A stretch of 64,000 nt of DNA from Chamberlinius hualienensis (lineage: Eukaryota): assembly GCA_054772095.1 (NCBI GenBank), contig BAAGAE010000031.1, forward strand, positions 1,238,979-1,302,978. Reading direction: 5' to 3'. Each line of letters starts with the position of its first letter. The first letter of the stretch is position 1. Under the pieces are notes generated by a model. It ran no database searches. It was not told the origin of the DNA and saw only the letters and a list, made by a program, of their open reading frames with translations. This document shows positions 4,672 to 54,298 of this stretch, in pieces. The translations under genes were made by a program, and so were the position numbers.

Positions 4672-6480
<1,809 letters not shown>

Positions 6481-8805: not shown

Positions 8806-10162
8806 ATGTGGTCGACCGAAGCAACTGTTCAACTAATCGAACTACTGGAGTCCAAGCCTATACTGTGGAATGTAAAATGCGAGGAATATAGAGATAAAGA
8901 GAAAAAAGCAGATGCTATTAAGGACATAGCCAACAACTTATCAAAAGAAGTGTATGATGTTGAGAAAAAGATTAGATCATTGCGAGTGCAATTTAACAGA
9001 GAGCATCAAAAACTGGTGGCAATACAAGAAAAAGGAGGGTTGACCAATAAAAGGATTCTATGGTTTGGGTATAATCTTATGAAGTTTCTTGTTGAAGGCA
9101 GTCGAAGTAGAAGAAGTCGTACAACCACTGATGTTACAACGGTAAGTTGTTTCCAACTATTTTACAGTGTCAACGAAACTTTCTATTTGACATGTTACGC
9201 AAAAGTTTAATTTTTGAAATTACTTTAATACATTTTTTGTCAATTTGAAAGTGGGTGAGTGGGACTGTTCCATTCAATTTAAATTTCAATGGACAAATTT
9301 GAGGAATTCCAGCAAGTGTCAACGTCAGTTCTCCTACTAGTACAGTCGAAAACAAACATTACGTTAAAAACAATAAAAAAGTTGAAACGGCAAAAATTAC
9401 ACGTAGTTGGGGAAACTACACAGTGATATAAAAAAATGTATTGTAGGCGAACATAATTTCAGGAGGATTTTACCCTTGATAAGTTGAAATGTTTAGAAAT
9501 GGTCGTTTGACAATTTACTGTATCTTTTCTATTTAGAATTACTCAGAATTTATTATTTTTTAAAAATATTTTTCGTTTTTTTATATTTGTTTTGATGGCA
9601 TAAGATCTTGACAACGGAGATTTGATTTCAATTGACAAAAAAATTAAAATAAAATTTTATGTTGGCTACACTTTCGGTATTTCAATTTTTTAAGCTATAC
9701 GATGCGTAATTAAACTTTTGATTATTTTAGGTGACTGAATTGGACGCTGTTGAAGAAAACGTTGATATTGTTGATCAAGAATCTCATAGTGCATCTGAAT
9801 GTGACCAATCTACTGTCAGAACATCAATTTTAGAATCAGCTTTGAAAAAGAAATCGCCAGTTTTGAAAAAGCAGCATTTCAAAAATGCCAAGAGCAAAAA
9901 GCTCCTGTTTTCACCGGTTAACCCCGTTAAAATACCACACGAGAGGTTAAATAGCCGTGACAAATATGAAATTTTTGGTGAAAGTGTTGCCATTTCTTTA
10001 AGAGAGTCTGGAAGAAATTCAAGAGAAATATCAATTGCCAAACATAAAATTAACCAAGTTTTATTTGACCTGGAAATGGGCTACTATGCGCATGAAGTGG
10101 AACACCGTCCAGCTTCTCCAAATGGTGAACTATCTCCTATAGTTCTCATGACAACTGAGTGA
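8806..10162 (+). CDS. MADF-BESS domain transcription-regulator-like protein, 2 exons
   Basis: Exons 8806-9141 (donor gtaagt at 9142) and 9731-10162 (acceptor ttttag; stop TGA 10160-10162); 256 codons. The N-terminus MWSTEATVQLIELLESKPILWNVKCEEYRDKEKKADAIKDIANNLSKEVYDVEKKIRSLRVQFNREHQKL is a MADF domain (LIELV..P.LW.. plus W..RYRR.. pattern). The C-terminus ..DKYEIFGESVAISLRESGRNSREISIAKHKINQVLFDLEMG fits the BESS motif. The ATG at 8806 lies inside the longer ORF 8674-9210. Confidence 0.8.
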
Positions 10163-14200: not shown

Positions 14201-17200
14201 GTTGTAATGCAATACAAAACTTACCCTATGTTCGCTTTTGTCCTTGCTTCAAAATCGGTTCGTAACCCACTGTCAAATTCATGCATGATTTCATCGTCGG
14301 TTATTGCAGCACCTGTGGTCACTGGTCTCGACTGAATCAGATTATTGTAATCTGATTAAAACTCCATTTTATTGATAAATATCATTATCGAACCTGTAAA
14401 ATGTAGAGATGATCTTGAATGATCGCCCATTCAAGATCTCGAGCATTTCCATAACGTTTTTCCAAGTAAATGGCAATTTGAGCTAATTTTAATATTAAAT
14501 GATCGTTTATAGAGCACTGTGCTTTCTCGGAATGTGAAATATCTTGGTTTATTGTTCCACCACTTTCTAAATTAAAAAATGATTAATTTTTGTATGGTTT
14601 AAAAAAGGGCTAGTACTGACTTACCAGAGATAATCATTTTTAGATTTTTAGCTCCAATTTGTTTCTGGGCAATTTCTAAGTCGTCCTGAAAACTTCTTCG
14701 CACAACAATTGTGTCTGGGTCAGATAAAGCAGATACGACACTCTATAGTAAAATTTAGTTGTTCATTCTTAAAAAATCATTATTTGTGTTTTAAAAAGTA
14801 ATACTTCTCCCAGGCCATAGTTAGACGTGATGATGATTGAGCTACTGTTGCCTGTTAGTGGATCACGGCTAAATAAAACGCCAGCTGAATCAGCTGGTAT
14901 CATCACTTGAACAACAACTCCCATTTCACCATCAATTATTTGCCCATTTTGTCTAGCAATTTAATGAAAATTTATTGTATCAAATACTGTATTGTAAAAT
15001 AAGTCAAATAAAAGACCTTCGATATTCCACTGAACGAAATGAAAACTGAGATGCCCAACATTTAACAATAGATTCGCAAATCTGAAAATATTTTCGGAAA
15101 TTAACTTCAATATTACCCGTAATAATATTAAATGATTTAATTTACGTTGTCAATCCCTTGTATTCCTAAATAAGTTTCATTTTGTCCAGCTGATGACAAG
15201 TCTTCGCCATCCTCACCTACAACAATATATTAATTAAAGAAAATTATGAAATATGTATCGACGGTACCAATAGCTGAAGATCTGATTGCAAATTTGTTGT
15301 TATCAACATCTTGTCCAAATAATTTTTCTAACTCTTTAGCAACGTCTTGTCTGACTTCATCTGGGATTTGAGTTTTTGATATCAACTCTACACAGCTTTC
15401 AAATAATACAAAATAGCAATTTAGAAACACAATTCGACATATAAATGCGAAAAATACCTCTTGCAAACGTCTTCTAAAGAGATGCAAATTTTCCGTCTAA
15501 AAGACAAAAGAATTTAGATTTAAGTATCAACAGTACTTTCAACTTTTTTTTTTATAAGGCTAGATATTTACCCAGCAACATCTACTAAATGTGATATGGC
15601 TGATTTGACTTTTTCGTTTCGATTGAGCAATAATTCAAATCCATATTTTGTGACGCAGACTCCATCTGGTATTGAGAACTATTGCAAATCAAAGAGATGA
15701 CTGATTAATAGTTTAATAAACAGTTAATTTCAAGACCAATAACCTTTTTAATGTCGTCATCCAACAACTCTTTTCTTATTTCCTTAAGATGAGCTAAGCT
15801 GGCTCCTTTGCCACCAACAAGTTGACCACCCTGACATAACGAATCTTCCAAATTCACCACTAATTTTGTTGTTTTGGGAAGGTCTAGATAAAAGAATAAT
15901 TGGTAAAACACTTTATTCAAATAAAGTAATTTTTACCAGGTTCCTTGATAAGTGGTAGAACAGGGGGCCTGATAATTGGACATATTTTTTCGTGAGGTTT
16001 GGCAATATAAATAAATCCGTAGCCACTGTCCCCATTATGCAATTTAAAACTAATAGGAGAAACCAAAATTTCGGATTTCCATTGAAGTCCTCCAAATACC
16101 CGAAATCCCTGATTATTATCTACTGTTGCGCTGAATTTGTAGAGTTCTTTACCTGTTATAAATTCTACTGTAATAATTATTTTACAATGAAAAGTTAATG
16201 TTGTGCCATTTACATGAAGTTTTAAAGTCAAATTTGATTGATGAAGGAAGATGAGCACTGGATGTCCAGTTGTCAATGTCCCAATTAAGTTTAGTTATGT
16301 AGGGCTTTGTCACGTCAAAAGGAATTGTAACATATCCATTAACAATACTACAAAAATAAAATTCGAAAGTTATTTGTGAAAAGATGATTTTAAGCCACTA
16401 CTTACTTTTTAACAAGCTTATTATGCGGTTGACCATTTAATACGTTTGTAGAGTTTATAGTGTTGTTGACTTCAATATGTAATCCGGTACCTTTCTGTAA
16501 ACAGTTGAAACTTGTTTCAGAATAAGTCATTACTGAATAAACATCATCATATAACTTTCACCTTAGTATAGCCTTTAATTACAGCCCACTGTTTAACATT
16601 ATTCCAGTCTAAAACACCTAATAAATGTTTAAGATATTAATTAAAAATGCAGTCATTTTTTAAAGACAGAATTACCATATCTTCTTTCCCTTGATCCTCT
16701 CAGAAGTAGTCGCTGCTCTTTATCATTTTCAATATTTATTCTTCCGTACCAGTGACCCCAGTTTTCAAAATTTTCAAAAGGAACCCTATTAAAAATTTAA
16801 ACCGAGATTATTAATTTCATTTTTAACAATAATATTATTTTACGTACAATTGCGGATTCTTTAAGAAATCTTTTGTCCATTCTGATTGAGCTAAAAAATC
16901 AGCTACCATTGAAGCATCATAAAAATTTTGGAATGATCGATAATAAGAGCTAGGATGATATCTATGAAATAATGAAAAAAACATGCCAAAATTATATTCC
17001 TATTCAGCAGTTTTTTCTGTTCATATAATTTATTTCTTACGTAAAACAAAATCTGACATTAACAATGTTGTCGTCATCAACTTCAGCCCACTTTTGCTTA
17101 ATTCCTTTCCTTAAAAATTACAATACAATTAACTGCAATACTTTTTGGAAAAAATTTCAAAATTTGACTTTCAACCTGAGTTGACCGTTAAATGTGATTC

Positions 17201-17680
17201 GGCATCGTCGAAGTGGTTCATGAACTTCAACGTTAAGTCCAGCTGCACTGAAGGATTTGCCATCTGTATGACATACTACAGTATCCGGATGGAATGGCAG
17301 TTGATAAATGTCACCATTTGATAACTTTAAATATAAACTAACTTCAGAAACGCGATTTGGTCGACGCCATATGGAAATCATTAATAAGTTTCCTTTTTCA
17401 TCACCACCCCAAATATCAATAATGTCCGCTCCCTAAAAACTGAAATGTTAATAATTATACTACAATCAATCGGAGGACAACTTACATGCGGATGAGCAGG
17501 GATGGGTCTTGGACGGTCTTTTTCCCAAACATCTTCAGGATTAAAAACTCCCAATTTTCTAAGATCATTTGTGCCGATGGCATAAGAAAGTATAGGCTGC
17601 TTCTGCTTTATGATTTTTCGAGCTTTATAGTATATGGCGATATATTTTATCCAGTACAATAAACTGTCTGAAAAATACAA
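11277..17680 (-). CDS. PEP-synthase/pyruvate-phosphate-dikinase-like protein (PPDK_N + PEP-utilizers domains), paralog A
   Basis: Putative ATG at 17680. Exon 1 ends ..DLRKLGVFNPEDVWEKDRPRPIPAHPH|gtaagt. Exon 2 (17159-17460) GADIIDIWGGDEKGNLLMISIWRRPNRVSEVSLYLKLSNGDIYQLPFHPDTVVCHTDGKSFSAAGLNVEVHEPLRRCRITFNGQL ends at donor AG|gttgaa. ATP-grasp exon DLPKTTKLVVNLEDSLCQGGQLVGGKGASLAHLKEIRKELLDDDIKK (ORF 15705-15920). Region 13294-13602 aligns to the GIxxxKxLxxAVxxYQNYTDPSL exon of B/C. C-terminal swivel domain GDILITHSTDIGWSPYFPLLSGIVTELG and VVTGAVVAREYGL at 11460-11790. Terminal exon ..DHVHLDSNNGILRKLNASPS, stop TAG 11277-11279. Only partly reconstructed; more diverged from B/C than they are from each other. 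Confidence 0.7.
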
Positions 17681-19246: not shown

Positions 19247-22200
19247 TTAGAGCTCATTATTTTCATGTTTTTCTAATTTTGTTATTGTTCCTTTTGACGC
19301 ATCCAATAACACCATATCTCCTATAATTCAAAAAAAAAAATACTGGTTATCTGTTAATTATCTAATAATACGAGTAACCGTATCTACGTAAAGTACCGAA
19401 TTTGATAGTGTTTACCTGTTTGAAATACTCTTGTGGCATATTGTGCACCAATTACGCAAGGCAATCCAAATTCTCGAGCAACTACAGCTCCTAACGCATA
19501 TAAAAATGATTGTACTTAATTTAGTAATTCCGAGAATCATAAAAGAATATGTAAACTTACCGTGTGAAATGAGTCCACCTATTTCAGTTACAACTCCCCC
19601 CAACATAGGAAAGTAAGGACTCCAACCAATGTCAGTGGCATATGTAATTAAAATTTCTCCAGGCTGATTTAATTAACAGAGTTAATGTGCAAATTAATTT
19701 TCAGTGATAACCTTTATTACGCACCTGAATTGTGTGCACATCGTGAAACGATGTAATTACTCTGGCTCGGCCTTCGATTATTCCTTGAGAAACTGGATAA
19801 CCTAAAAAAAACCAATTATATCTTGATAAAAGAAAGGACTTTGTAATAATTTTCTCAACCCACCTTTAATTTCGACGGCATCATCAGATAGTGGCAATTT
19901 GACATTATCATCAATCTAAAAGTTAGTTAATAATCTTTATTCTTTTATAAAAAAAAAAAAAAATAGCTCTAAACGTGATGCTTACTGGAACCGGAAATCC
20001 TGTAATCATTTCTTCAAACTTCAATTTATCCATATATGAATGTAGACGCATACGTTGTTTAGCTCTGGAATATTAATAATTTGAAAAGTTTAAATCAACA
20101 CACTTAAATCAACCATTAATCGAGTCACCACCTTTGAATTAGTAGGGGGGATCGAGTTTTAAGTAGCCGATCAATCTCGTCTAAACTTAAAAAAAGGATT
20201 AAATTTGCATCGGGTATTAATCCTTCTTCGACCATTAGTTTCCCAAGACGACGATATCCCAAACGTAAGCCGTGGTAAACTTTAATGACCATTGACTGGA
20301 AAATTTGAATTGATATATCCAATAGGTATTATATGAAAATAAAGAACTATAAAATAATTATACACTGTATACCTTTGTTAATTCTCTATTACAAACACCT
20401 CGTCGACCTTTTGCAAGTACCCATCTTAAAAGTCTTCTAAAAATCAATATAACATTTTGAAATTGCTATATTTAATTATCACTCAATCACGGAGAAAATA
20501 TTCATAGCATTGTATATTGACCGTTGTATTGGACCTAATGGCGTTTTAATACCACTAATTACGTCATCAAGCGTTTTTTCCTTCTTATCAACTGAAAGAG
20601 TCGGAGCTTTTAACATATTCTGAAAATTTTGGAATTACATTTATACGAACCGTTTAATGGAATGAAAAAAGATATTTGGCTGTTACCTTAACAACTGTTA
20701 CTATTTGTGTTGGATCCAATGCCCAAGTTACGCAACTCATGTCAAACTACACAAAATCAATAAACAATTAGACAATGCGAATTAAACGTTTATTGAAATT
20801 TATATACTTCTTTCAATCCCCTGTGTCCATGGCGCTCAATGAAATCGTTATACTTTTTACTAACTTCACCGTCTCCATTTTGCAACCACTTCAGCGCTTC
20901 CTATGAAAAAAAGTTTAATAATTGGTCAATTTTGGTATAAACTTAATACTCACAGTTGAATCAAGAGCAATAAACTGTGACGGATCCATCTCCTTTGAAA
21001 CTGCATTAGCTAATTCCTAATAGTTGTTTAATCCGTTATCTGAATATATCTTAATTTAATTATAAAATTTACTTGCAAACTAAACGGCACATTTCCACTT
21101 TCAGCACCATTACTACTGCCAACTAAATAAGCGAAATCTGAATACTGGTCCAGACCAAAATCTACAATAGTTTTAAATTTTGAGTTATATTTAACGCTAA
21201 ATTTAATTAAACGTTAATTAAACGCGAGTTATATTTAATTGGTAATGCCTACATACCACCATCTCCTTTAGAAAGAATGTTTAAAATCATGAAGTTCCAC
21301 GTTGTTGACGACATTGTTATGTACATATGTGCTAACATTGCCTACAAAATGTTAAAAAGTATTTGTTAGTTTTAAAGTAAATCAAATAATTAAAAAAATT
21401 ATTACTCGTTCTACGTCAATTAAATGCTGACCAATGAGGTCAAAGGCTTTTCAGCTGTGTCACCACTTAATGAAGGATCAGTGTAATTTTGATATTGTCG
21501 AACTGCATCATTTAAAAATTTTTTTCCATTAAAAATACCCTATAAATAACATCTGAAAATCAGTCATCGTCTTGACTATACACATAATATTTAGACTTAC
21601 TTTAAGTCCCATAGTCATTAAAAACATTTGACTTTTCAAGGGGGGTTTTGTAAAGCGTTCACTTGCAATTTTGGCCACATCGTCATCATCTAAAACTCTA
21701 CCATAAAAAGCAACTTCAACTGCTTTTGACAAGGCAGATTTTTTCTTTTCGAAATTCCAAGCTTTCAACTGTTAACATAGTATTTATTTTAGCATAAATA
21801 AGTGTGACAGTTAAAACAAAATCACGTGTTTACCTGGACACGTTCATTCATAACATGACCGTAAAATAAACCAACCGCATAAGGAATCGTTGGATCATAG
21901 CGATGATAAGGCATTTTCCATATAAACATTTTCTAAATCAAGTTCACAAATATATTAATATAAAGCAATGAAATGTTATTAAGTATAACTGTTTTACGTG
22001 TATCAATGAACCTTGAGCCTTCATAGCTGAGGTAACAGTAACAGGTGTCGACGCACCAGGCATCACTTCTCTGCGTTTTTAAATAAATATTAATAAACCT
22101 TAATTATCAATGCAACTGCATATGTTGTTAAGTCATTTTATTATAAAGCTTATATCGACTTTAAAAAAATCAAAAAGACTTTCAGCATTCGAAGTTGAAC

Positions 22201-25200
22201 TAATTACTCACCCAACATTGGCAGTACTGAATGGCTCTTCGTCTACTCTTAAAACAGTATCAAACTCATGCATTATTTCAAAGAAGGTCAAATTGTTGTT
22301 GCCAGTAATCGGCCTCGACTGTTCAAATACAAAATAAATAAGTATAAAAGAATCTAATGGCTATTGCAGAATTTCATACTTGTAGAAGATAAATGGTTCC
22401 ATTACAAACTGCCCATTCAATATCTCGACCCGTGCCAAAGCATTTTTCCAAATAAAGCGCAATGTTTCCAAGTTGAACAGCCAATTCATTATCGACTGTT
22501 AACTTTGAGCATTGATCAGCGTCTAGTTCAATTGCATAAGTGCCTCCATCCTCTGCAAGATGTAAAAAAAACCATTTGAAATGAATAACTTCTCGATATT
22601 AAGAAAATGTACCGTTCATAGTTATCATATTTTTCTTGCTTCCAATTACATTATCGTCAGTTGTATGCAGTTTATCATTCCACGTTCTGCGAAGTATTAT
22701 GTAGTCTGGCTCTGCACTGGCTGACACGACACTCTTCATTGACGCAATTCATAGCCAAATAAAGACAATGTTACAGCAAAAAATCACACTCAACAAATGT
22801 TTGTTTACCTCTCCAAGACCGAAATTAGACGTTATAACCATTTTGGCCGAACTGCCAGTAATTGGATCTCGGCTGAATAAAACACCTGCAATTTCAGCAT
22901 TTACCATCTCTTGGATTACAACTCCCATACCAGCGTATAACGGCTGACCGTTTTGCCTAAGTATTTTGACTGCGTTTTAAGTATAATGGAATTAAAACCT
23001 CACACCTACTATAATATCCATACCTTTTATATTCGATTGAACGATAGGCAAACTGTGAAGCCCAACAATTAACAACTGCTAAAAAAATCTGTTTAAAAAC
23101 ATTTAGCCAATAATGAGAAAGTTACATATAACGTGCAATTAGTAGTTTTTTACATTTTCAGTCCCTTTCACTCCTAAAATGGTATCATTCTGTCCAGCGG
23201 CTGATAGTTCTTCTCCATCTTCGCCTTCAATTAAATATTTAATATAGCATTACAGCCTAATTTAAAGAAAAAAATTTAATTTTAAATTCTTTTACCGACT
23301 GCTGAAGACCGAATTGCAAATCTTTTAGTTTCGTAGTTTTCACCAAATAAGTCTTCTAGTTTAGTAACTATAGTCGTTTTAAGAATTTCTGATAAAACAG
23401 TAGCAATCACTGCAGCATACATGCTAATTAATCACGAATAACATGATAATATTAACATGATAAATCGATCGATTCAATAAAAAATAAATAGTTACTTTTT
23501 GCACTCATCTTCTAACGATCCATGATTATGTCTGTTAAATTAAAATATGATTAAAGAAATTTCATTTTGGTGAGTAGTGGCAAAAAACAAACCCAGCTGT
23601 GTATTTTAGCTGTGCGATAGAGTTATTCAAATGGGAATTATTTTTCAAATGTAAATCAAATGCTGTCTTCGTTAAACAAAATCCATCCGGAATGCTAAAC
23701 TGTAATTGCGATTAGTTAAATATATATATAAAATATATGCACCTCAATAATTAAATTATTACGTTTTTTAGTTGAGAATCCAACGAACTCATCAATGCTA
23801 ATGATGAACCTTTGCCACCAACAATTTGGCTACTTTTACAATTTTCTTCGCTAAAATCCACCACTATTTCATTGCACTGTGTTATATGAGCTAGAAGTTT
23901 TTTAAAAATGAGTTCAGTGATTGAATCACTTAATAATAATATTTTCAGCGACAATAACTAACTTAAATCCAAAAGCTGTGGTACGGAATCCCGAATAGTG
24001 ACAGGACAATGTGTTTGATTTTCATTTGGCACTGAAATTTCAACAATTCCTTCTCCCTCCGATGCATTTAGGTTTACTTTCACACTGAAAATATTTACAA
24101 TTCGGTTCCACTGCTGACCTGAATAAACGGTCATTCCAGAAACGCGTTCAACTTTTAGCGTATATTTAACACCATCTAAAGTTTGACTTATTTTTTATTC
24201 ATAAATTTAAAACACCTGAATTTGATTTACAAACCAGCTATAAAATTAATGACCGAATTATCTGGAAATGTTTCTGGATTTTTCTTTAGCATCTCAAAAT
24301 CTATATGGTAATCATTGACAGGTAGTATTCTTATACTGTCGGGACTGCAAACGTAGCCATAAACAAAACTATAAAAATGTAAGAATTTAATGTATCAAAT
24401 CTCTTTTTCTTAATCCTGCAATGGGCAGTAATATTACTTTTGCAAAATATTATCACATTCTGCAAACAAATGAAAAGTCGTTCCATTCTGTAAAATACAT
24501 AAATAAACCAAAAAAAAGTTCTTTTGAATAATGTTTATAAACTCATGGAATATGAAACGTACGTGGAGAACTCCTTGATAGGAAAATGTCAATTGATCTC
24601 CTTGAGGAATGCCTATTAATGGTAATTTTTAAGTTATAATGTCTTTGTTAACGCAATGTTTATTTTGTCACCATGTTTTCTGGCTTTTAGCCCTCTTAGC
24701 AACAGTTCAGTGTTCTGGTTATTGATCGTTATTACACCATGTAATTGACCAAATTGCTCTTGCCAATCCTGAGTAAATCTTTTTTAAAAAAAATTGAAAT
24801 GGTTATTTTCGCTGGTTGATCGTCATTATATTTGACTTACAAATCATATGGGGATGGTGGCTCTGTTTTTTGTTTAGCAAACAATTTCACCATACTAGGA
24901 ACACTAAAATCTTCAGGAAATCCCATATAACCGTGAATAGGATGCCAACTGTATCAGACAAGAAATATTCATGTTAAGTAAATTTTAAGTGATCAGCAAT
25001 TATTACAGCTAAAGCCTTTAAAACGGATTTTACATTTTATCATTTGTGATTTGTGATATCTTTATCATATACGATCATCCTATTTTTCCAATATCATTAT
25101 TTAAACACTTATAATATTACTATCATTTGATAGTGAAACTCCATGTCCATACCTTTCCATACAAAAAAACACCAATTATTAACAGTTAGACTAAATTGTA

Positions 25201-25954
25201 AAAGTTAATGCCGATATAATATATTTTTAAAATATATTATATGAATTGGAAGTGTTTCTTGTGACCGCTAGTTAGACTTATGAATGAACTTACATAAAAT
25301 TAAATCGTACTTCGACTACATCTGATTCGCTTTCATCCCAAGTCGAACGTACTCCTTTCCTATAAGAATAAGAAAAGCATTAAACTATTTCCACCACCTT
25401 ATGAAGTTTAATTATAGCGTATTTGCCTTAGATAACCGTTGAATATTATTCTCCATATTCGTAATGGTTCAATAACTTCAAAAGTCAAACCTGCAGCTGA
25501 AAAACTTCTACCGTCTGTATTATAAGCACAGACATGTGGGTGATGTGGAAGTTGATATTGTACACCATCGCTCAGTCTTAAATACAGCATAACCTCAGCC
25601 AATCTGTTATTTTTTCGTGTAATTCTTGTGAACAGGACACAACCATCACGACGAACACCACAAAAACCAAGCGAATCAATAACCTACATCATAAAAAGAG
25701 CCAAATTACATTAATTAATAGATTTTATTAAATTTCCTTTGATACTTTTATTTGCAGGTTTTTAGATCAATACTTTATTAATAACTTACATGTTCAGATG
25801 ACAGTTGTCTTGGACAATCTTTCTCCGAAGCTTCAGGTAAAGTTAAAATTCCTTTCTTTCGTAAATCACTCGCTTTAATGTCAAAATCAAACGTCGGTTT
25901 TAGTTTCTTTTTTAAACTGCTAACATAGCGATTGGTGAAAAATGTCTTCTTCAT
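19247..25954 (-). CDS. PEP-synthase/PPDK-like protein, paralog B (tandem duplicate of C; possibly frameshifted)
   Basis: Reconstructed exon chain: 25790-25954 (ATG 25954; MKKTFFTNRYVSSLKKKLKPTFDFDIKASDLRKKGILTLPEASEKDCPRQLSSEH), 25427-25683 (ends AG|gcaaat, a GC donor), 25294-25359, 24841-24948, 24672-24778, 24563-24612, 24438-24487, 24235-24368, 23963-24175, 23763-23890 (..QIVGGKGSSLALMSSLDSQLKN), 23593-23699 (FSIPDGFCLTKTAFDL..), 23496-23531 (36-nt microexon), 23296-23423 (..RFAIRSSAV), 23164-23234, 23024-23088, 22809-22956 (QNGQPLYAGMGVVIQEMVNAEIAGVLFSRDPITGSSAKMVITSNFGLGE), 22613-22733 (SVVSASAEPDYIILRR..), 22380-22552 (..CFGTGRDIEWAVCNGTIYLLQ), 22212-22318 (SRPITGNNNLTFFEIMHEF..), 21998-22070, 21834-21932, 21601-21768, 21406-21539 (134 nt versus 135 nt in C; a 1-nt deficit that shifts frame), then several C-terminal exons (..GGVVTEIGGLISHG.., ..AVVARELGLPCVIG..) to stop TAA 19247-19249 (..DMVLLDASKGTITKLEKHENNEL). 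Every splice phase closes onto the recognisable PPDK_N frame. Confidence 0.7.
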
Positions 25955-26883
25955 TGTGGTACATCGAGATAAATAAAATCCGTTGAAACTGAAATGATTA
26001 TGTCATGACCGTCATTTAATACGGATGCTACCAGGATACAATAAAATGACGAAAAATCTCACAACTCAATGTAAGCTAATAACCAGTTACTGTATATTAT
26101 GGGAACTGTTGACTTGAGGGCATCTTTGGGTGTTGCTGACCTTGTTTTCTGCACTTCACTTTTGATAATAGTATCCGGTTGGCAACTGGGTTGAAATGCA
26201 TTCACGTACACGATCTGTTTAATCTAACCTGTCTTTTTTAAAGCGTTTTCTGAAATTGAATCAGAAGCTTCTTAAGTTGTTTTGACACATTGCACTTGTA
26301 CTGGAAAACGTAAAAGCGTACTCAGTACTGTATTTTTATTTTCAGCATCCATCAAAAATCCTTAATTAATTATACTCCGTCCTTCGAATAATTAAAACGT
26401 TAATTTTACGAGGGACTTTTATAAGGGAATTCCAAGAAGTGGAAATAATTTCGTATGTTTTGAATTTTTTGGCATGTACAAATTTTAATGGCATAATTAA
26501 TCCTGAAATCTAAATGATCATGTAATGAGTTGTCAAGGCTAACGTTTCCATCCGAGTAAAAACTATTTACTAATGGAATATAATAACATAATATAGTCTG
26601 CTTGCTTATAATTCGTTTTGACATTACGTTTATAATAATAATACAGTACTAAAGCAACTTTTTAACAAGTTCAAAAAATAAAAGTTTGAAAATGTTATCC
26701 GTCTTAGACCGTTTTAATAATAACTTTTACTACTACTCCTGTTATTTTAAAAGTTTTAAGAGATAGATCGTGAGACTTCGCAGTCCGATATTAGAGAAAT
26801 TAATTTCGTTAACATTGGATTCAAAACATTTATTCAATATTTAAATTCGCTACACCTTAATTAATAGTGATAACATTAAATTT

Positions 26884-29800
26884 TTAATGTTCATTATCTT
26901 CACATTTGGAAATTCTTGTTATAGTTCCTTTTGAGGCATCAAGTAACACCTTATCTCCTATAATAAAAAAAAATACATTTCAGTTGAACAGTAAAAACAA
27001 AGAACTAGTAAGTACAGTATATCATCTGATGAAATGTATACCTGTTTGAAATACCCTAGTAGCATTTTGTGCACCAACTACACAAGGCAATCCAAATTCA
27101 CGAGCAACTACAGCTCCTAATTGTCGCCAAGTCAATTCATTTAAAAATAACTATCGGTATAGTAATATGGAGAAATTTAAAAAAATATATTTGAATTTAC
27201 CGTGTGAAATGAGTCCACCTAATTCGGTTACAACTCCACCTAACATAGGGAAGTATGGACTCCAACCAATATCAGTAGCATGAGCAATTAAAATTTCCCC
27301 AGGCTGCTTAATTGAAAATATTAATGTGATGAATTAATTTGTGTGATGACTTATTATGCACCTGAATTGTATGCACGTCATGAAACGTTGTAATTACTCT
27401 GGCTCGTCCTTCGATTGTCCCTTGAGATACTGGATAACCTAAAAATCAATTTTTTTCGTAATAACCAATAAATAAATACTGTTTAAGTTGCTGTAATTAC
27501 TCTTAACACACCTTTAATTTCAACGGCGCCATCAGATAGTGGCAATTGGGCATTTTCGTCAATCTAAAAGATATCACCATTTTTCTGCATATATATATAT
27601 ATATATTTTTTTAAATTTTTTTTGGAAAATAACTCTTACTGGTACTGGAATTCCCTTAATCATCTCTTCAAACCTCAGTCTGTCCATAAAGGGATGAAGA
27701 CGCATACGTTGTTTAGCTCTGGAATATTAATGTTTAAATCGACTCTCTTAAATGGATGATTAATAGAGACATCACCTTTGAATTAGTAGGGGAGATCGAG
27801 TTTTAAGTATCCGATCAATCTCGTCAAAAGTTAAAAAAAGTATTAAATTTGCGTCGGGTATTAATCCTTCTTCGGACATTAGTTTTCCAAGACGACGATA
27901 TCCCAAACGTAAACCGTGGTAAACTTTAATGACTATTGACTGCAAAATTTGAAATAATATTATCCAATAGGTATTATGCAATAATTAAAAGAGCAATAAA
28001 ATACTTATACACTGTACACTAACCTTTGTTAATTCTCTATTACAGACACCTCGCCGACATTTTCCTAGTACCCATCTTAGAAGTCTCCTAAATCAGCGTA
28101 ATTATATGGTAACTGTTATTATTTAATTATCACTCAATCACGGGGAAAATATTCATAGCATTGTATATTGACCGTTGTATTGGACCTAATGGCGTTTTAA
28201 TACCACTAATTACGTCATCAAGCGTTTCATCCTTCTTATCAACTGAAAGAGTTGGAGCTTTTAACATATTCTGAAAATTTGGGCATTACAGTTATACGAA
28301 TCGTTTAATGGAATGAAAAAAGATATTTGGCTGTTACCTTAACAACTGTTACTATTTGTGTTGGATCCATTGCCCAAGATACGCAACTCATGTCAAACTA
28401 CACAAAATCAATAAACAATTAGACATTGCGAATTAAACGTTTATTGAGATTTATATACTTCTTTCAATCCCCTGTGTCCATGGCGCTCAATGAAATCGTT
28501 ATACTTTTTACTAACTTCACCGTCTCCATTTTGCAACCACTTCAGCGCTTCCTATGAAAAAAAGTTAATAATTGGTCAATTTTGGTATAAACTTAATACT
28601 GACAGTTGGATCAAGAGCAATAAACTGTGACGGATCCATCTCCTTTGAAACTGCATTAGCTAATTCCTAATAGTTGTTCAATCCGTTATCTGAATATATC
28701 TTAATTTAATTATAAAATTTACTTGCAAACTAAACGGCACATTTCCACTTTCAGCACCATTACTACTGCCAACTAAATAAGCGAAATCTGAATACTGGTC
28801 TAGACCAAAATCTACAATAAAGTTTGAGTTATAGTTTTACGCTAAATATTTAATTGACAATGCCTACATACCACCATCTCCTCTAGAAAGAATGTTTAAA
28901 ATCAAAAAGTTCCACACAGTCGATGACATTGTTATGGACATATGAGCTATCATTGCCTACAAGTGATTTGAAAAAAAATATATATGGGTTGATTATAAAT
29001 GTAGACCGAACATAGTAAAATGTGTAATACTTGTTCTACATCAACCAAATGCTGACCAATGAGGTTAAAAGTTTCTTCAGCCGTTTGGCCACTTAATGAA
29101 GGATCAGTATAATTCTGATATCGTTGAACTGCATCACTTATTAGACTTTTTCTGCTAATGATACCCTTTGAAATAATATGTATAAATCATTAATTCCATT
29201 GAATAAACGTAAATTAGTAAAAATTACTTTAAGCGACATATTCATTAAATAGATTTTACTTCTGAACGGAGGATTTGTAAAACGTTCAATTGCAATTTTT
29301 GTTACATCGTCATCGTCTAATACTCTTCCATATATTCCAACTTCCATTGCTTTTGTCATAGCCGATTTCTTCTTCTCCAAATTCCATGCTTTCATCTATT
29401 AACCAGTTATAACATATTACGTAAATGACAATAACATTTCGCTTTAATACCATGACAGTTTCTTGCATAACATGGCCATAAAATATTCCAAACATTTCAG
29501 TTATTGTCGGATCATAGCGATGGCATGAAACTCTCCATGAAATCATTTTCTAAGGTAAATTTACAAATAAAATACTAAAAACCAGTAAATTGTTAATACA
29601 TATGACTTTTTACTTGTACGAATGGAACTTGAGCCCTAGAAACTGAAGTAAATGTAACAGGAGTGGTCGAACCAGGCATCACTTCTCTTTTAATTAAACA
29701 AAATATTAAAAAAACAAAGTACTGTATCAATAACTAATTAACGTCAATTCCAAATGTTGCAAATCATTTGATTACTAAGCTTATTAAAAAAAACTATGCA

Positions 29801-32800
29801 AATATTGCGTGAAAAGAAGACTTTCAGCATTCGGAGTTGAAGTTGAACTAATTACTCACCCAACATTGGCAGTACTGAATGACTCTTCGTCTACTCTTAA
29901 AACAGTATCAAACTCGTGCATTATTTCAAAGTCGGTCAAATTGTTGTTGCCAGTAATCGGCCTCGACTGTTCAAATACAAAATAAATAAATATAAAAGAA
30001 TCTAATGGCTATTGCAGAATTTCATACTTGTAGAAGATAAATGGTTCCATTACAAACTGCCCATTCAATATCTCGACCCGTGCCAAAGCATTTTTCCAAA
30101 TAAAGCGCAATGTTTCCAAGTTGAACAGCCAATTCATTATCGACTGTTAACTTTGAGCATTGATCAGCGTCTAGTTCAATTTCCTTAGTGTCTCCATCCT
30201 CTGCAAAATGTGAAAAAAAAACCATTTGAAATGAATAACTTCTCGATATTAAGAAAATGTACCGTTCATAGTTATCATATTTTTCTTGCTTCCAATTACA
30301 TTATCGTCAGTTGTATGCAGTTTATCATTCCACGTTCTGCGAAGTATTATGTAGTCTGGCTCTGCACTGGCTGACACGACACTCTTCATTGACGCAATTC
30401 ATAGCCAAATAAAGACAATGTTACAGCAAAAAATCACACTCAACAAATGTTTGTTTACCTCTCCAAGACCGAAATTAGACGTTATAACCATTTTGGCCGA
30501 ACTGCCAGTAATTGGATCTCGGCTGAATAAAACACCTGCAATTTCAGCATTTACCATCTCTTGGATTACAACTCCCATACCAGCGTATAACGGCTGACCG
30601 TTTTGCCTAAGTATTTTGACTGCGTTTTAAGTATAATGGAATTAAAACCTCACACCTACTATAATATCCATACCTTTTATATTCGATTGAACGATAGGCA
30701 AACTGTGAAGCCCAACATTTAACAACTGCTAAAAAAATCTGTTTAAAAACATTTAGCCAATAATGAGAAAGTTACATATAACGTGCAATTAGTAGTTTTT
30801 TACATTTTCAGTCCCTTTCACTCCTAAATAGGTATCATTCTGTCCAGCGGCTGATAGTTCTTCTCCATCTTCGCCTTCAATTAAATATTTAATATAGCAT
30901 TACAGCCTAATTTAAAGAAAAAATTTAATTTTAAATTCTTTTACCGACTGCTGAAGACCGAATTGCAAATCTTTTAGTTCCGTAGTTTTCACCAAATAAG
31001 TCTTCTAGTTTAGTAACTATAGTCGTTTTAAGAATTTCTGATAAAACAGTAGCAATCACTGCAGCATACATGCTAATTAATGACGAATAACATGATAATA
31101 TTAACATGGTAAATTATTAGATATCTTATTCATAAAAATAGTTACTTGTCGCATTCATCTTTTAACGATTCATGATTATGTCTGTTCAATTAAAACTATG
31201 ATTAAAAAAAATTCGTTTTTGTAGGTCATGACAATAAACTAACCCAGCTGTGTATTTTAACTGTGCGATGGCATTATTTAAATGGGAATTATGCTTCAAA
31301 TGTAAATCAAATGCTGTCTTCGTTAAACAAAATCCATCCGGAATGCTAAACTGCAATTGCTATTAGTTACAGAAACTGTATATATAATATATGCACCTCA
31401 ACAATTAAATTATTACGTTTTTTAGTTGAGAATCCAACGAACTCATTAATGCTAATGATGAACCTTTGCCACCAACAATTTGGCTACTTTTACAATTTTC
31501 TTCGCTAAAATCCACCACTATTTCATTGCACTGTGTTATATGAGCTAGAAGTTTTTTTAAAAATGAGTTCAGTGATTGAATCACTTAATAATAATATTTT
31601 CAGCGACAATAACTAACTTAAATCCAAAAGCTGTGGTACGGAATCCTGAATAGTGACAGGACAATGTGTTTGATTTTCATTTGGCACTGAAATTTCAACA
31701 ATTCCTTCTCCCTCCGATGCATTTAGATTTACTTTCACACTGAAAATATTTACCATTCGGTTCCACTGCTGACCTGAATAAACGGTCATTCCAGAAACGC
31801 GTTCAACCTTTAGTGTATATTTAACACCATCTAAAATTTGACTTATTTTTTATTCATATATTCAAAACACCTGAATTTGAGTTACAAACCAGCTATAAAA
31901 TTAATGACCGAGTTATCTGGGAATTTTTCTGGATTTTTCATTAGCATCTCAAAGTCTATATGATAATCATTAACTGGAAGTATTTTCATACTGTCGGCGG
32001 TGCAAAGGTAACCATATACAAAACTGTAAAAATGTACGAATTCGATAAATTAATTTAATTTTTAATTTAATGGGCAGTCATATTACTTTTGCAAAACATT
32101 ATCACATTCTGCAAACAAATGAAAAGTCGTTCCGTTCTGAAAAATACAAAATTAAACCAAAAAAAAGTTATTTTGAATAATGTTTATAAACTCATGGAAT
32201 ATGAAACGTACGTGGAGAACTCCTTGAAAGGAAAATGTCAATTGATCTCCTTGAGGAATGCCTATTAATGGTAATTTTTAAGTTATAATGTCTTTGTTAA
32301 CGCAATGTTTATTTTGTCACCATGTTTTCTGGCTTTTAGCCCTCTTAGCAACAGTTCAGTGTTCTGGTTATTGATCGTTATTACACCATGTAATTGACCA
32401 AATTGCTCTTGCCAATCCTCAGTAAATCTTTTTAGAAAAAATTGAAGTGGTTATTCACGCTGGTTGATCGTCATTATACTGTATTCGACTTACAAATCAT
32501 ATGGGGATGGTGGCTCTGTTTTTTGTTTAGCAAACAATTTCACCATACTAGGAACACTAAAATCTTCAGGAAATCCCATATAACCGTGAATAGGATGCCA
32601 ACTGTATCAGACAAGAAATAATATTGTCAAGTAAATGGACAATTATGAAATGATCAACAATTATTGGAAATACAATAGTAAATCAAATTGTGTGGCTCAT
32701 ATGTGATATTAATGGACATGTTAACATATTGTTGGTTATTTTTAAATTTTGGCAATATTTCTACTAAGCCGTTTAGAAACTACTATTGTTTTATATGTAC

Positions 32801-33650
32801 ACCAATTTGTAACTGTTAGAACCGATTTGTAAAATTAGATACCGATATGTCGAAATTAACATTGACTTACATGAAATTAAATCTCACTTCGACTACATCT
32901 GACTCGCTTTCATCCCAAGTCGCACGCACTCCTTTCCTACGTGGATATAATAGAAAACATGAATAATGATTCCAACACTCTATACATTTTATTTACAGCA
33001 TGCTTGCCTTAGATATCCATTGAAAAATATTCTCCATATTCGCAATGGTTCAATAACTTCAAAATTCAAACCTGCAGCTGAAAAACTTCTACCGTCTGTA
33101 TTATAAACACAGACATGTGGGTGATGTGGAAGTTGATATTGTACACCATCGCTCAGTCTCAAATACAGTATAACCTCAGCCAATCTGTTATTTTTTCGTG
33201 TAATTCTTGTGAGCAGGACACAGTCATCACGGCGAACCCCACAAAAGCCAAGCGAATCGATTACCTATATCATAAAACGAACCCATTGGCATTAATAGAC
33301 TGCGTTAAATTTCATTTAATATGTTTATTTTTTATGTCTTGAAATCAGTGGTGTAGTCGAGGGGAAACGGGAGGAGGGAAGTCGTTCCTGTACTTTTTTG
33401 AATGTCCCTAAGTATGATGGAAAATTAGCGTTCTACCACTATTTAACTTAGCACTACACCACTGCTTGAATTAAATATAGTGTCTTACGTGCTCGGATGC
33501 AAGTTGCCGTGAACAGTCTTTCTCCCAAGCTTCAGGTAGAGTTAAAATTCCTTTCTTTCGTATATCACTAGAGTCACAGTCGAAATTAAACGTCGGTTTT
33601 AGTTTATTTTTTATGTTGCTAATATAACGATTGGTGAAGAATGTCTTCAT
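26884..33650 (-). CDS. PEP-synthase/PPDK-like protein, paralog C (tandem duplicate of B)
   Basis: ATG at 33650 (MKTFFTNRYISNIKNKLKPTFNFDCDSSDIRKKGILTLPEAWEKDCSRQLASEH|gtaaga). ORF 32989-33183 (MAEVILYLRLSDGVQYQLPHHPHVCVYNTDGRSFSAAGLNFEVIEPLRIWRIFFNGYLR, ends AG|gcaagc GC donor). 31380-31500 (..IVGGKGSSLALMS..). 30022-30225 (..LEKCFGTGRDIEWAVCNGTIYLLQ). 29141-29395 (MKAWNLEKKKSAMTKAMEVGIYGRVLDDDDVTKIAIERF..). 29000-29160 (GIISRKSLISDAVQRYQNYTDPSLSGQTAEETFNLIGQHLVDVEQ, 135 nt, intact). 27772-27981, and swivel-domain exons near 27050-27300. Terminal exon ..DKVLLDASKGTITRISKCEDNEH, stop TAA 26884-26886. Colinear with B at an offset of ~7.58-7.65 kb. Confidence 0.75.
33346..33465. mobile_element. 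MITE-like insertion (12-13 bp terminal inverted repeats CAGTGGTGTAGT / ACTACACCACTG) in an intron of PEPS-like C, absent from the homologous intron of B
   Basis: cagtggtgtagt at 33346-33357 and its reverse complement actacaccactg at 33454-33465 bracket ~95 bp with no counterpart in the aligned B intron (25700-25790). CTTGAA occurs on both flanks (possible target-site duplication, not perfectly adjacent on the left). Confidence 0.45.
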
Positions 33651-34738
33651 TGTGATACACTTAGATCCGTAAACTCGGACAAAGTATCGAAATTATGGCA
33701 TACAAACTTAATTCGTTTAATGGATGTAACCAGGATGTGATAAAATTACGAAAACTCTCACAATTTAATTAAGTGTTGTAAACAACTAGCAAGTCATTTC
33801 AAGGAAACGTTAAGTGGAATGTATAGTATGTGTGTGTATGATCGACCTTGTCCTTACGTATAAGCCTGATTGTTACCATACATACAGAACAGATAACAAC
33901 TGATAGGTGTAATCACCGATGTTCTTTTACAGCCAATGGTAAAATATCGATTGAAGATTCTTTTTATTAACAGTTAATCATCAGCATGACTTTAACAAAA
34001 TTAAGTATGACTGTAAAAAAATAAAGTTTAGAAAACAATATTCATTGAATAAATATTTTCTCTTTGAAATACTTCCTACCATCACTTGTGCTGGCGGTAA
34101 TCGTGTCACCAGGAATAAATTATGATGGCAAACAAAAATATCTTTAGGTCACACTCTATTCAGACAGCCTTGATAGCTGGGAATATTCATTGCAAAGTTG
34201 AATAAAATGTTTAAAGTTGAATATTGGTAAAAGTGATAATGGTCAACGATTCATTGCCGTTTTCATTGGACGCAAAGTAGATCAATAGACCCTTTTAGTT
34301 TAGCAACTCGATAATGTGTGTAATAAACGTATTTTCTAATCAAAGTATTAAGGAATAATTACCAAAAGTTACCAATTAGTATTAACATTAATTGTGATAA
34401 ATTTTAATCGGTAATACCATTGTATTATATATAAAAACATTTGAAATGCCCTGGCATAATCTTATAAACCTTGACCATTCTTAATGCACTACTTAACAGT
34501 TTAAGTTCTTATGAACGACCCACAAAAAATTAAATCACTACTGAAGAAATACTAAATCAGATTAAGAATAAAATTTTATTTAATAATAATGCGTGTTATG
34601 CATGCGTAAATGGTTAATTAATTATTCATTATTATATATATAAACAACATCGTTTACCAATGGCCTTATATCCAGGTTTTATTTATTTATTACATTATTT
34701 ACTGTATGTCATCAAATAGACATACTGTAATTGTATAA

Positions 34739-37371: not shown

Positions 37372-38655
37372 TTATAATTTCGCACCAATACTTCCGAATA
37401 AATTGATGGGTTTAAAATGTCCATCTCCCATTTCGATGTTTACGTCTGACATCCACTCGTTATTTTCGTCAAGTGCCATTCGGTTCCTATTGACACTCAT
37501 AGCTTTAAGTTCGGCCAATGTAGAATCATATTCAATAGGTGGTAAGGATCCCGTATAATCAGTATCTTTCGGATACAAATCATCACCTAATCAAGAAAAA
37601 AGACAAACATGTGCATAACGTTAAATTTAAATATTAGTGATATTTTACCTGGCAAGAAATGAATAAAACCATCTTTAGTATAAGCTCTAAGAGGACACAT
37701 CATTGGCAATGGTTTATTCTCTCTAGCCTTCGAAAAATCTCTTAACTCATCAAACTGAACAAAATTTAATAAACGACTCAACTCGTACACCTGAGGTGGA
37801 GGAAGAAATAACTGCTGCATTCCGGCCATGGCGAGAAACTGTAACGATGTACACCACTAAAAGTAAAATGTCTAATTAAAAATTAAGTAATAACATTTAT
37901 CGTCAATAATAAAAATAATACTTTACTAGATGGTTGCTGACTTCACTACTGTAATTGACTTCTGGTGTTTCATCTAGAGAACAAAAGTAAAATATTGAAT
38001 CGAATCTCGGCTTCAAGTATGTTGGAGTTAGCCAATTTGACCATGGCTGTAAAGCCCAAACGTCAGGTGAGCAGTCCATCTCTTCACACAGTTTAATCAT
38101 TTCGTTAGCATCCTGCTGAATTCTTTCCTGCCATTCCGATGAATTTTTCACAATTTGAGGAACTGGCGGGGAGTCGATAGGCTCTTTATTTGGTCTTGCT
38201 ATTAAAATTCCACTTTCTTCAAAAGTTTCTCTAATTGCCGTCACTTTCAAAGCAATTTCCGGAGAAAGAAATCGACCATCTTTCACTCCTTGCTCAATAT
38301 CTGGATCAATCCGTTCGTAGCTTGATGGGTGAAGAATAGCCGGAATATCTGCCATATGCTTGTCTGTTAATAATTTGATATCATTACTAGAAGAACGTTT
38401 TCGAAAAACGTCCCACCATTTGCCAGAAAAATCCGCTTTGCTCACTAAGCCTCCGGGAAAAACGTAAGCATTTGCCATAAATCCCATTGTTTTCGCTCTT
38501 TTTAACATTAAAAGTTTGAAGTGTTGGTAATCTGCTTGCGGTCCACCTAGACGCAAAATCTCGGGTGGCTTTATTTTTGAAAAATCGATGGATTTGATAC
38601 TGTTTGATCTTGTAGCAATTATTAAAGTTGATGCTTCTCTCCAAGACCGAGCCAT
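37372..38655 (-). CDS. Nudix hydrolase NUDT19-like (peroxisomal acyl-CoA diphosphatase), 3 exons, C-terminal PTS1 AKL
   Basis: Exons 37927-38655 (ATG 38655; ..ANAYVFPGGLVSKADFSGKWWDVF..AIRETFEESGIL.. Nudix box), 37649-37856 (alternative in-frame acceptor at 37838; ..MAGMQQLFLPPPQVYELSRLLNFVQFDELRDFSKARENKPLPMMCPLRAYTKDGFIHFLPG), 37372-37586 (DDLYPKDTDYTGSLPPIEYDS..MGDGHFKPINLFGSIGAKL, stop TAA 37372-37374). Mouse NUDT19, as I remember it, ends in a PTS1 tripeptide and shares the ..LPPPQFYE.. and ..HLLPGDELY.. blocks. Confidence 0.85.
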
Positions 38656-40682
38656 GCTTCCAAAGAATTAAAATTCAAGTTTAATCTGTAAACATATAAA
38701 ATGAGCTCGACAAGTAAATACTCTTTCAAGATAATGCTGCAGCTGTTATTTTGGACACTTTAGTACCCTATTTTTCAAATGAATGCCTCACAAATGTATA
38801 AATATTTCAATGAAATATATACTAGCACAACAAAATTGTTAAATATATTTTAGAGTTCCATTGTGTCACTTTTGCTTGATTCAGGCACCTTCAACAACTA
38901 TACTGTATGTCATGCTTCACAAACTTACTATACGAATGCAACGAATACACGTAACGATTTACATAAAAAGCTTTAAAAACATGCAACGTATACAAACTAC
39001 AGTAAAATAACTGTTAAAAGTTTGTAGTCACCTTCTAATTACCATATAAGCATACAGTATACTCTACTGTATTTCGACCTCTTTAAAATAATAAAATTAA
39101 GAAGAAAAAAATCGTCAAGTGCATACAAGCACAAAATCTAACTTTATGCACTATATACTGTAAGTTTACAATCAAAACATTATAACTTTAGTAGCCACTT
39201 TCGGTTTCTTTTAAATGTCTTTATTTGTATAAATCACAAACTGGAAATAAGTTGTAAGTTGTAGACAGTGGGGAGGTTTGTGTTTAATGGTTTAATTTTG
39301 AAAGTGACTTTAGACAGTACTATATGGTTTGTATGTCGACGACCGAAATGTTTGTTAAGTGTTTTTACAGTTATACAGTAAGTTAAAACTCTATATGAAC
39401 TTATTTATTATTCTAGAAATCTGATTGAAGGATGTCACAAAGGTCAACCAAGTACTTTACAGAGACCTTGGCATATTTTGTGTTTCTACGCTCGATAATG
39501 ACCAAACAACACATGGCTTGCTAAGTACAGTACAGTATATTTAAGTCATAACTAACACCGTCTACTCACGAAAAAAGTTGACAAAATAAATAGTTACATT
39601 TCGAAAATTTACAATGAGCTCAATTACCGTATTTTATGGGGTAATCCAAATGCAACGTGTACCAATAACATACAGCCAAAACACATGATGATTCAGCTGA
39701 TGATTACAATGTGCCCAGATTTCCCCCATTAAAATGATAAATATAATCTTATAAATTTAAACAAAATTATAACAACATTTTCTTTACATTTAATAATATT
39801 CGAAATGTCACAAAACAATAAAATACTAATACAAGTATAAATTGATTTTAATTCCAACATTTATTATATTGTATTTACTGTTTCGATTAGGTGGAACACT
39901 GTTCGGTAATGAAGTAAAAACTGTGGTAATAGGCAGAGCCTAGCATTCGTTCGTTTATTTTGGTTTCTAATTTGGTAAATAAGGGTTAGCTGTGTGTAAT
40001 GTTGTTTCTGTGATTATATAACAACTTACATCGTTCCGTTTTGTGGGCAACTTACTAAAAACCTTGAATTAGCATCTTTAAAGGTACAACATTACAGGTA
40101 AGATTGCAATTAAACTGGCGATTATGTAATAAGTATAGTACATCACCAAGCAATGGAAAATGAAAATTGGTAGTAGTTGAGGATAATGTTGATGTTAGAA
40201 TAATATGGGCGGTATCTTTACAAGTTTTTAGTCTATACACATTTGTTGCAATAAAAACTAAGCTATGAAGCAGATTACACATTTTGTTTCTAAAGCCTAC
40301 ACTATATTTCATTTCTTTTATAACTTAATTGGCTCAGCTGCTTGATTTTTTGCATTTGTAGCAATTTTTCACTGCCATATCACAGGTTTATCGTTTTGAA
40401 TTGATTCATATACTGTGCATAGATATACCGAAATTCTACTATTTTGTTTATCATTTCAAGCACGAAAGAGATTTCGATTTATTTTCGATTTATCTAGTAA
40501 CTGCCTTATCAAAATGATTTAACTCTAATTTAAAGTAAAGTTTGAGAATGGTTCTACGTTTAGACAATTAAATTAGGTATGTGTTTATGAATTACATTCA
40601 AATCTGACGTCTTGACAGTTGCCTTTGAGCTTTTTTTAAATGCCAAAAATGAAATGAGTAATAGTTGTTTGTATTTAACAGG

Positions 40683-43454: not shown

Positions 43455-48403
<4,949 letters not shown>

Positions 48404-51642: not shown

Positions 51643-51772
51643 GGGGATAAATTTTGGGTGTTTGTTTGGGGATAAATTTAGGGTGTTTGTTTGGGGATAA
51701 ATTTTAGGTGTTTGTTTGGGGATAAATTTTAGGTGTTTGTTTGGGGATAAATTTTAGGTGTTTGTTTGGGGA
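51643..51772. repeat. Minisatellite, 25-bp unit GGGGATAAATTTT(G/A)GGTGTTTGTTT x ~5
   Basis: Five head-to-tail copies with 1-2 substitutions each, in the AlaRS-Galphao intergenic desert. Confidence 0.85.
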
Positions 51773-54272: not shown

Positions 54273-54298
54273 AGAGAGAGAAAGAGAGAGAGAGAGAT
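54273..54298. repeat. (GA)n microsatellite
   Basis: agagagagaaagagagagagagagat read directly. Confidence 0.8.

Follow-up and report, generated by a model that had tools for sequence, protein, structure and literature searches.

Mosaic divergence between two tandem RPH-like genes of the millipede Chamberlinius hualienensis points to interlocus gene conversion

The genes of the array

Chamberlinius hualienensis is a cyanogenic, chemically defended millipede. We analysed a 64,000-nucleotide stretch of its genome (GenBank assembly GCA_054772095.1, contig BAAGAE010000031.1, positions 1,238,979 to 1,302,978 of the forward strand), hereafter the window, which holds two tandem genes, B and C, whose identity to each other changes in steps along their length. 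Comparison of the window with itself by BLASTN yielded one direct repeat, 19275-25963 against 26911-33659, with 83-89% overall identity; the period of the tandem unit is 7637 bp. Gene B lies on the minus strand at 19247-25954 and comprises 37 exons, with a coding sequence of 3858 nt for 1285 amino acids (aa); its 36 introns measure mostly 53-141 bp, with a single one of 345 bp. This model, whose splice sites are all listed and whose open reading frame (ORF) is intact, was curated by hand using splice signals, B/C indel patterns, splice-site conservation and a third paralogue, A. Automatic gene models made by exon-chain dynamic programming had been dropped because they misread the frame and ran on through introns.

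Gene C, the tandem paralogue of B (26884-33650, minus strand, 37 exons, 1288 aa), was modelled by projecting B through the alignment. The projected model has exactly the coordinates that the initial annotation had given. The two proteins are 88.6% identical, and all 36 splice-site pairs are kept in C (36/36), whose ORF is intact when the exon 23 donor is set 11 nt downstream, at 29045. An apparent frameshift in this exon raised the possibility that C is a pseudogene, which we rejected because the downstream GT mends the frame and the resulting peptide matches paralogue A. Both genes are observed to be intact and under purifying selection, with a background ratio of nonsynonymous to synonymous divergence (dN/dS) of 0.18 between them.

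The boundary of intron 2 is of the GC-AG type in both B (25360-25426, AAG/GCAAAT) and C (32937-33007, AAG/GCAAGC). Use of the GC donor is supported by the fact that the sole nearby GT of B is lost in C; paralogue A has a GT at the matching position (near 17175). At the end of exon 23 (B 21432-21450; C 29046-29075), one base pair present in C is deleted from B, some 20 nt short of the donor. Six codons are thereby frameshifted in B, which reads KPLTSL against ETFNLIGQHL in C. The donor GT used by B lies 11 nt upstream of the one required by C, and splicing there brings B back into frame. Exon 23 of B looks like a frameshift offset by a moved donor; since the A peptide (EAFDLICEKI) resembles that of C, the state in B appears to be the derived one.

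Paralogue A (11277-17626) is older and served as outgroup. Stop-free segments and tblastn indicate that A, B and C are three collinear paralogues, all on the minus strand. Exon peptides of A and B share 32-73% aa identity by tblastn, and in the self-comparison of the window by BLASTN A had no similarity to B or C. Synonymous divergence (dS) from A to B and C is saturated (>1.4), with a nonsynonymous divergence (dN) of 0.42-0.67. The model of A, an exon model obtained by dynamic programming and three-way alignment, is incomplete: the exon matching exon 1 of B and C (17486-17626) has no in-frame ATG, and counterparts of B exons 4-9 were not recovered by the model (15900-17040). The 5' structure of A may be different, or A may be partly degenerate.

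Regarding the protein family, gene B contains the Pfam domains PPDK_N (PF01326, aa 416-729) and PEP-utilizers (PF00391, aa 1225-1287), where PEP stands for phosphoenolpyruvate. The protein is collinear with an 898-position profile of PEP-synthase type, and its best PDB matches are the rifampin phosphotransferase (RPH) of Listeria (5HV1, 5HV2 and 5FBS, E ~5e-77); its middle region aligns weakly to 5FBS residues 562-719. Like bacterial RPH (Listeria monocytogenes, 5HV1, 5FBS), B and C have a long middle region set between an ATP-grasp PPDK_N domain and a C-terminal PEP-utilizers swivel domain that carries the GGxxSH motif. B thus shows the three-domain layout of RPH (ATP-grasp, substrate-binding domain and swivel His domain), which is also that of arthropod proteins annotated as putative phosphoenolpyruvate synthase or rifampicin phosphotransferase-like. 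Unlike bacterial RPH, B and C add an N-terminal extension of ~390 aa and stay far under every NCBIfam equivalog cut-off: the RPH profiles score 325 bits against a cut-off of 999 (NF041857) and 226 against 1700 (NF000283), and the PEP synthase profiles 285 against 740 (TIGR01418) and 303 against 598 (NF005057). A PEP/pyruvate-binding TIM-barrel domain was not found in B by Pfam, which returned PF01326 and PF00391 only. An assignment as PEP synthase (PpsA) or pyruvate phosphate dikinase was rejected on the missing TIM barrel and the scores below the equivalog cut-offs. By architecture, B and C are RPH-like "putative PEP synthase" proteins rather than demonstrated RPH. The closest named relatives found with the ATP-grasp region of B belong to spiders, a centipede, a horseshoe crab and mites (41-49% identity); no close orthologue of B or C was retrieved, the best external matches being at most 49% identical.

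Mosaic divergence along the repeat

In a global MAFFT alignment of B and C, the identity in 100-column windows jumps between ~65-80% and 98-100%. The step-wise pattern described in the initial annotation is therefore present on proper alignment, and divergence is not uniform. Two intervals of B had been reported there as ~99% identical to their partners in C. Gap-free identity is 97.6% for 20480-21180 and 98.2% for 22330-23480; the near-identity is real, with cores of 98-100% and a perfect run of 508 bp, and the earlier figures were slightly high because both intervals overrun the tract edges. Adjacent sequence had been called more diverged, which agrees with 81.4% for 19400-20300 and 87.9% for 23480-25950, although the latter is not a uniform segment but contains three near-identical tracts amid patches at background level.

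The mosaic is statistically significant, and this is observed directly at neutral sites as well. Identical sites were significantly clustered in a Sawyer-type runs test, silent sites included. The longest identical run reached 508 bp over all sites, against a maximum of 121 bp in 5000 permutations; the corresponding values are 339 against 66 for intron sites alone and 109 against 87 for third codon positions alone. None of the 5000 permutations attained the observed longest run or sum of squares, whether all, intron, intron plus third-position or third-position sites were used. Intron divergence between the copies ranges from 0% to 45%, with introns 5, 9, 13-18 and 25-27 being 98-100% identical and introns 1-3, 19-23 and 32-36 being 55-72% identical (heterogeneity over 36 introns: chi2=378.5, df 35, p=3e-59). 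The earlier claim that near-identity spans exons and introns alike is thus confirmed: within the tracts, intron and synonymous positions match no less closely than constrained sites do.

We delimited the tracts by penalised-likelihood change-point segmentation on intron and third-codon sites, whose divergence we call silent. It returned 9-12 segments, alternating between silent divergences (p) of 0.008-0.04 and 0.21-0.35. By the Nei-Gojobori method, dS is 0.006-0.073 in the tracts and 0.26-0.60 in background blocks of at least 48 codons, reaching 1.08 in a 24-codon patch. Indel events number 11-12 in each unconverted block and 1-5 in the tracts, a concentration consistent with heterology limiting exchange, or simply with age.

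All features of this mosaic are given below by their coordinates in B, on the minus strand. The tract of highest identity, H3 (22175-23459; C partner 29817-31108), extends over 1285 bp from intron 12 to intron 19 and holds the 508-bp perfect run. It has 6 mismatches in 742 silent sites (p=0.008) and 15 in 1284 sites overall, with dS 0.006, and its introns 13-16 are 100% identical. H4 (20467-21288; C partner 28117-28903) covers 822 bp from exon 24 to intron 29, with silent p=0.032, all-site p=0.027 and dS 0.034; its upper ~140 bp are transitional, with indels of 30 bp and 6 bp in intron 24. H2 (23732-24296; C partner 31386-31951; 565 bp, exon 8 to intron 10) shows silent p=0.040 and dS 0.073, and its intron 9 is 100% identical. 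H1 (24420-24967; C partner 32069-32620; 548 bp) runs from the 3' end of intron 3 to intron 7, with silent p=0.033 and dS 0.016, and has exon 4 and intron 5 100% identical. Segmentation on all sites added H0 (25447-25631; C partner 33028-33212), a tract of ~185 bp inside exon 2, where the proportion of synonymous differences (pS) is 0.048 (2/41 synonymous sites) and 0.43-0.56 elsewhere in the exon; with a background pS of 0.30 this would have P=7.5e-5. An intermediate segment at 20044-20466 (C partner 27698-28116) has all-site p=0.117, dS 0.184 and intron divergence 0.185, and is probably an older conversion.

The residual differences in H3 are mostly nonsynonymous (11 nonsynonymous against 1 synonymous, with 3 intron substitutions) and clustered. 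At the junction of intron 17 and exon 18 (22534-22563), five substitutions and a 2-bp indel are packed into 30 bp, and the tract holds two dinucleotide changes. The cluster could be a patch missed by repair, the junction of two tracts, or the product of multi-nucleotide mutations, and is statistically not compelling.

Between and around the tracts lies diverged sequence. The 5' block (24968-25954, up to 25952 in the silent-site segmentation; C partner 32621-33650), interrupted by H0, has silent p=0.307 and intron divergence 0.357. The central block (21290-22174, from 21291 in the silent-site segmentation; C partner 28905-29816), which comprises exons 20-24 and aa ~746-925, has silent p=0.32 and intron divergence 0.316, the same as the other background blocks. 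For the 3' block (19247-20043; C partner 26884-27697) the values are all-site p=0.242, intron divergence 0.365 and dS 0.49; the segmentation's own 3' segment, 19247-20466, which includes the intermediate part at 20044-20466, has a silent divergence of 0.277. Two short patches separate the upper tracts: that between H1 and H2 (24299-24419; C partner 31954-32068) is at background level (silent p=0.348), and that between H2 and H3 (23460-23731; C partner 31109-31385), which holds the 36-bp exon 12, is less converted (silent p=0.21).

The intron divergences of the three large blocks (5', central, 3': 0.357, 0.316, 0.365) are homogeneous (chi2=2.2, p=0.33), and are to be read as raw lower bounds, the AT-rich introns being so diverged that they are near the alignment limit. 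Because of this homogeneity a single old duplication age fits all unconverted sequence, with a raw background silent divergence of ~0.28-0.35, and a model with three tiers of age was rejected on the same grounds. Outside the genes, sensitive BLASTN found one remnant of homology in the upstream, promoter-side spacers (B 26012-26145, C 33713-33851; no strand assigned), with 68.5% identity over 143 bp (E=2e-10), and no alignment between the remaining upstream spacers of B and C. At its 3' edge the unit shows 77% identity in the last exon and 43% over the 47 bp immediately downstream. As the 5' flank, the last exon and the downstream sequence are all diverged, the duplication itself is old.

Probable interlocus gene conversion and competing explanations

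One duplication age cannot account for the pattern, as the initial annotation had argued: the introns are strongly heterogeneous, and near-identical tracts of differing ages lie amid an old background. B and C very probably descend from an old tandem duplication followed by repeated non-allelic (interlocus) gene conversion. The proposal of conversion tracts that include introns finds support in the sharp tract edges, the resetting of silent sites, the old flanks and the several tract ages. We envisage that one old tandem duplication of the 7.6-kb unit would have produced B and C, and that stretches of ~0.2-1.3 kb would since have been copied repeatedly from one to the other, through misaligned homologous repair between copies resolved without crossover. 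Such copying would ignore exon-intron boundaries and would reset introns and synonymous sites in each tract to near-identity, while the unconverted blocks would retain the original divergence, the unit ends and the 0.9-kb central block having escaped. Taking the fraction of background divergence as relative age, at least five tracts would have been reset at different times: H3, the youngest, at ~2% of the duplication age, H0, H1, H2 and H4 at ~8-12%, and the segment 20044-20466 at ~30-40%. What is observed is the mosaic; the recombinational mechanism, the number and order of events, the direction of any transfer and the absence of assembly error are inferred.

The tract sizes and the mosaic of B and C match published interlocus conversion (bioRxiv 10.1101/2025.10.29.685298; PMC3924837), the second source being a review of its general theory. 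A close parallel is the HMA4 triplicate of Arabidopsis halleri, tandem genes whose mosaic divergence comes from interlocus conversion (bioRxiv 10.1101/2025.10.29.685298). There too the copies share one orientation, divergence is step-wise, introns are homogenised and the ends of the unit are less converted. Unlike HMA4, the B/C duplication is much older (background silent divergence ~0.3, dS 0.26-0.60), and B and C were read from one haplotype. The genome paper of C. hualienensis (PMC12671775) makes no mention of gene conversion, tandem duplication or an RPH-like family.

Several points weigh against conversion or limit what can be drawn from it. The signature of GC-biased conversion, where GC is guanine-cytosine content, is absent: enrichment was not seen in the introns of the tracts (24.7% against 24.0% in the background, p=0.68) or at third codon positions (GC3, 28.8% against 26.5%, p=0.40). 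The comparison covers a single haplotype and the array of a single species, and donor and acceptor copies cannot be assigned from it. Finally, assembly and polishing may have influenced the exact identity inside the tracts.

This last point leads to the alternative that survives best, although we consider it improbable: that the mosaic is an assembly artefact, caused by repeat collapse, by a chimeric consensus of the paralogues, or by polishing with wrongly mapped short reads. PacBio Sequel and Illumina data from male millipedes were combined into the hybrid public assembly (PMC12671775), and polishing can wipe out true paralogue-specific variants where copies are already very similar. Polishing is nevertheless incapable of turning 30% divergence into 1%; collapse or polishing would at most have removed some differences in tracts that were already similar. 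The tracts, of 0.2-1.3 kb, have ~30%-diverged, indel-bearing flanks on both sides, so that long reads would be anchored uniquely. Moreover, copy-specific differences persist inside the tracts (15 substitutions and 9 indel columns in H3, 21 substitutions and 39 indel columns in H4), there are several levels of divergence, and the 37-exon ORFs are intact in both copies. We also rejected the idea that B and C are alleles or haplotigs which misassembly turned into a false duplication, since introns differing by ~30% and spacers unique to each copy do not fit with alleles.

The opposite history, in which B and C are a young pair at ~99% identity and one of them acquired its diverged blocks by conversion from more distant paralogues, seems to us less probable still. 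A third paralogue is adjacent and other family members are possible elsewhere in the genome. However, the unit is old at both edges, in the upstream spacer, exon 1 and introns 1-3 on one side and in the last five introns and the 3' end on the other, and the homogeneity of the background would be unexpected for imports from different donors. In no block is A closer to one copy than to the other (for the central block, dN from A is 0.602 for B and 0.598 for C), which, together with the saturated dS of A, led us to reject A as donor of the diverged blocks.

Repeated unequal crossing-over, with contraction and expansion of the array, could also generate chimeric genes, since tandem copies in the same orientation are a substrate for it and one event can make a hybrid gene. 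Both copies are unconverted at either end and have at least five alternating tracts in between, a pattern for which many pairs of crossovers would be required, with copy number restored each time. Such a series is formally equivalent to conversion and inseparable from it in one haplotype; being less parsimonious, it keeps a chance as slim as that of imported blocks. Heterogeneous selective constraint on introns or exons has in its favour that, within the background blocks, exons have generally diverged less than introns. It can practically be dismissed, because whole runs of introns reach 98-100% identity and others in these two genes 55-72%, synonymous divergence is ~50-fold lower in the same places, and the runs test is significant on intron sites alone.

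Setting these alternatives beside gene conversion, the central block deserves separate consideration. The initial annotation had taken 21180-22300 as more diverged still than the other flanks; its raw identity is indeed the lowest (77.8%), but it is not older at neutral sites (intron homogeneity p=0.33), and it looks most diverged only because of extra nonsynonymous change. In the central block dN=0.218, dS=0.60 and dN/dS=0.36, against dN 0.06-0.09 and dN/dS 0.18 in the end blocks; nonsynonymous and synonymous differences number 75:43 and 50:64, respectively (Fisher p=0.0037). By positional anchors to 5FBS, the block is collinear with the part equivalent to the RPH substrate-binding domain. 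It is tempting to propose that selection has kept it unconverted, with B and C having diverged in substrate specificity, but we regard this as rather unlikely. If true, the array would represent sub- or neofunctionalisation under conversion pressure in an arthropod family resembling xenobiotic phosphotransferases.

Comparable "peaks of divergence" held by selection against conversion are known for exon 5 of the human red/green opsins and for RHCE/RHD, cases from Teshima & Innan 2008 and Innan 2003 as summarised in a review (PMC3924837). As in the examples summarised there, the B/C block is internal, diverged between two strongly converted tracts, and has a doubled dN/dS (0.36 against 0.18). 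In the opsin case, as that summary presents it, the flanking introns are homogenised and the exon alone is diverged, whereas the introns of the B/C block are fully diverged and its dN/dS is below 1. Selection is therefore not required: with its introns at full background divergence, a dN/dS under 1 and further unconverted blocks in the same genes, mere escape from conversion is enough to account for the block.

The mosaic of B and C is an ordinary, textbook case of a known process, and it does not change the general understanding of gene conversion. It offers a clean illustration, at a single locus, of conversion tracts of several ages in a myriapod; for this group there are, to our knowledge, almost no data on interlocus conversion. 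Dating the duplication by whole-gene identity (88%) or by the near-identical exons would be badly wrong; the unconverted blocks alone (dS ~0.3-0.6) reflect its age, and therefore identity-based dating calls for caution. The unconverted block with raised protein divergence could guide functional study of the uncharacterised arthropod RPH-like enzymes.

Surroundings of the array

From ORF translations, the array is flanked by an Arf-family GTPase exon (5959-6243, minus strand) and a MADF-domain-like ORF (8665-9207, plus strand) on one side, and by a NUDT19-like Nudix hydrolase (37906-38667, minus strand) and alanyl-tRNA synthetase exons (45549-46930, minus strand) on the other. None of these four genes is related to the array. 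A look-up of the neighbouring annotated protein P0121, meant to retrieve public gene calls near the array, returned no record. The NUDT19-like ORF matches an annotated C. hualienensis protein at 100%, and the best match of the B ATP-grasp region is at most 49%; it would seem that the protein collection searched lacks the three RPH-like genes or contains faulty models of them.

No transfer RNA genes were found in the window. Tandem repeats of the window were considered and have no bearing on the B/C mosaic; one of them, at 51640-51773, consists of 5.4 copies of a 25-bp unit with 97% matches. The GC content of the window is 32%, against 31.9% for the C. hualienensis genome (PMC12671775). The 25-bp repeat lies within a low-GC stretch (50000-56000, 25-29% GC) with positive GC skew.

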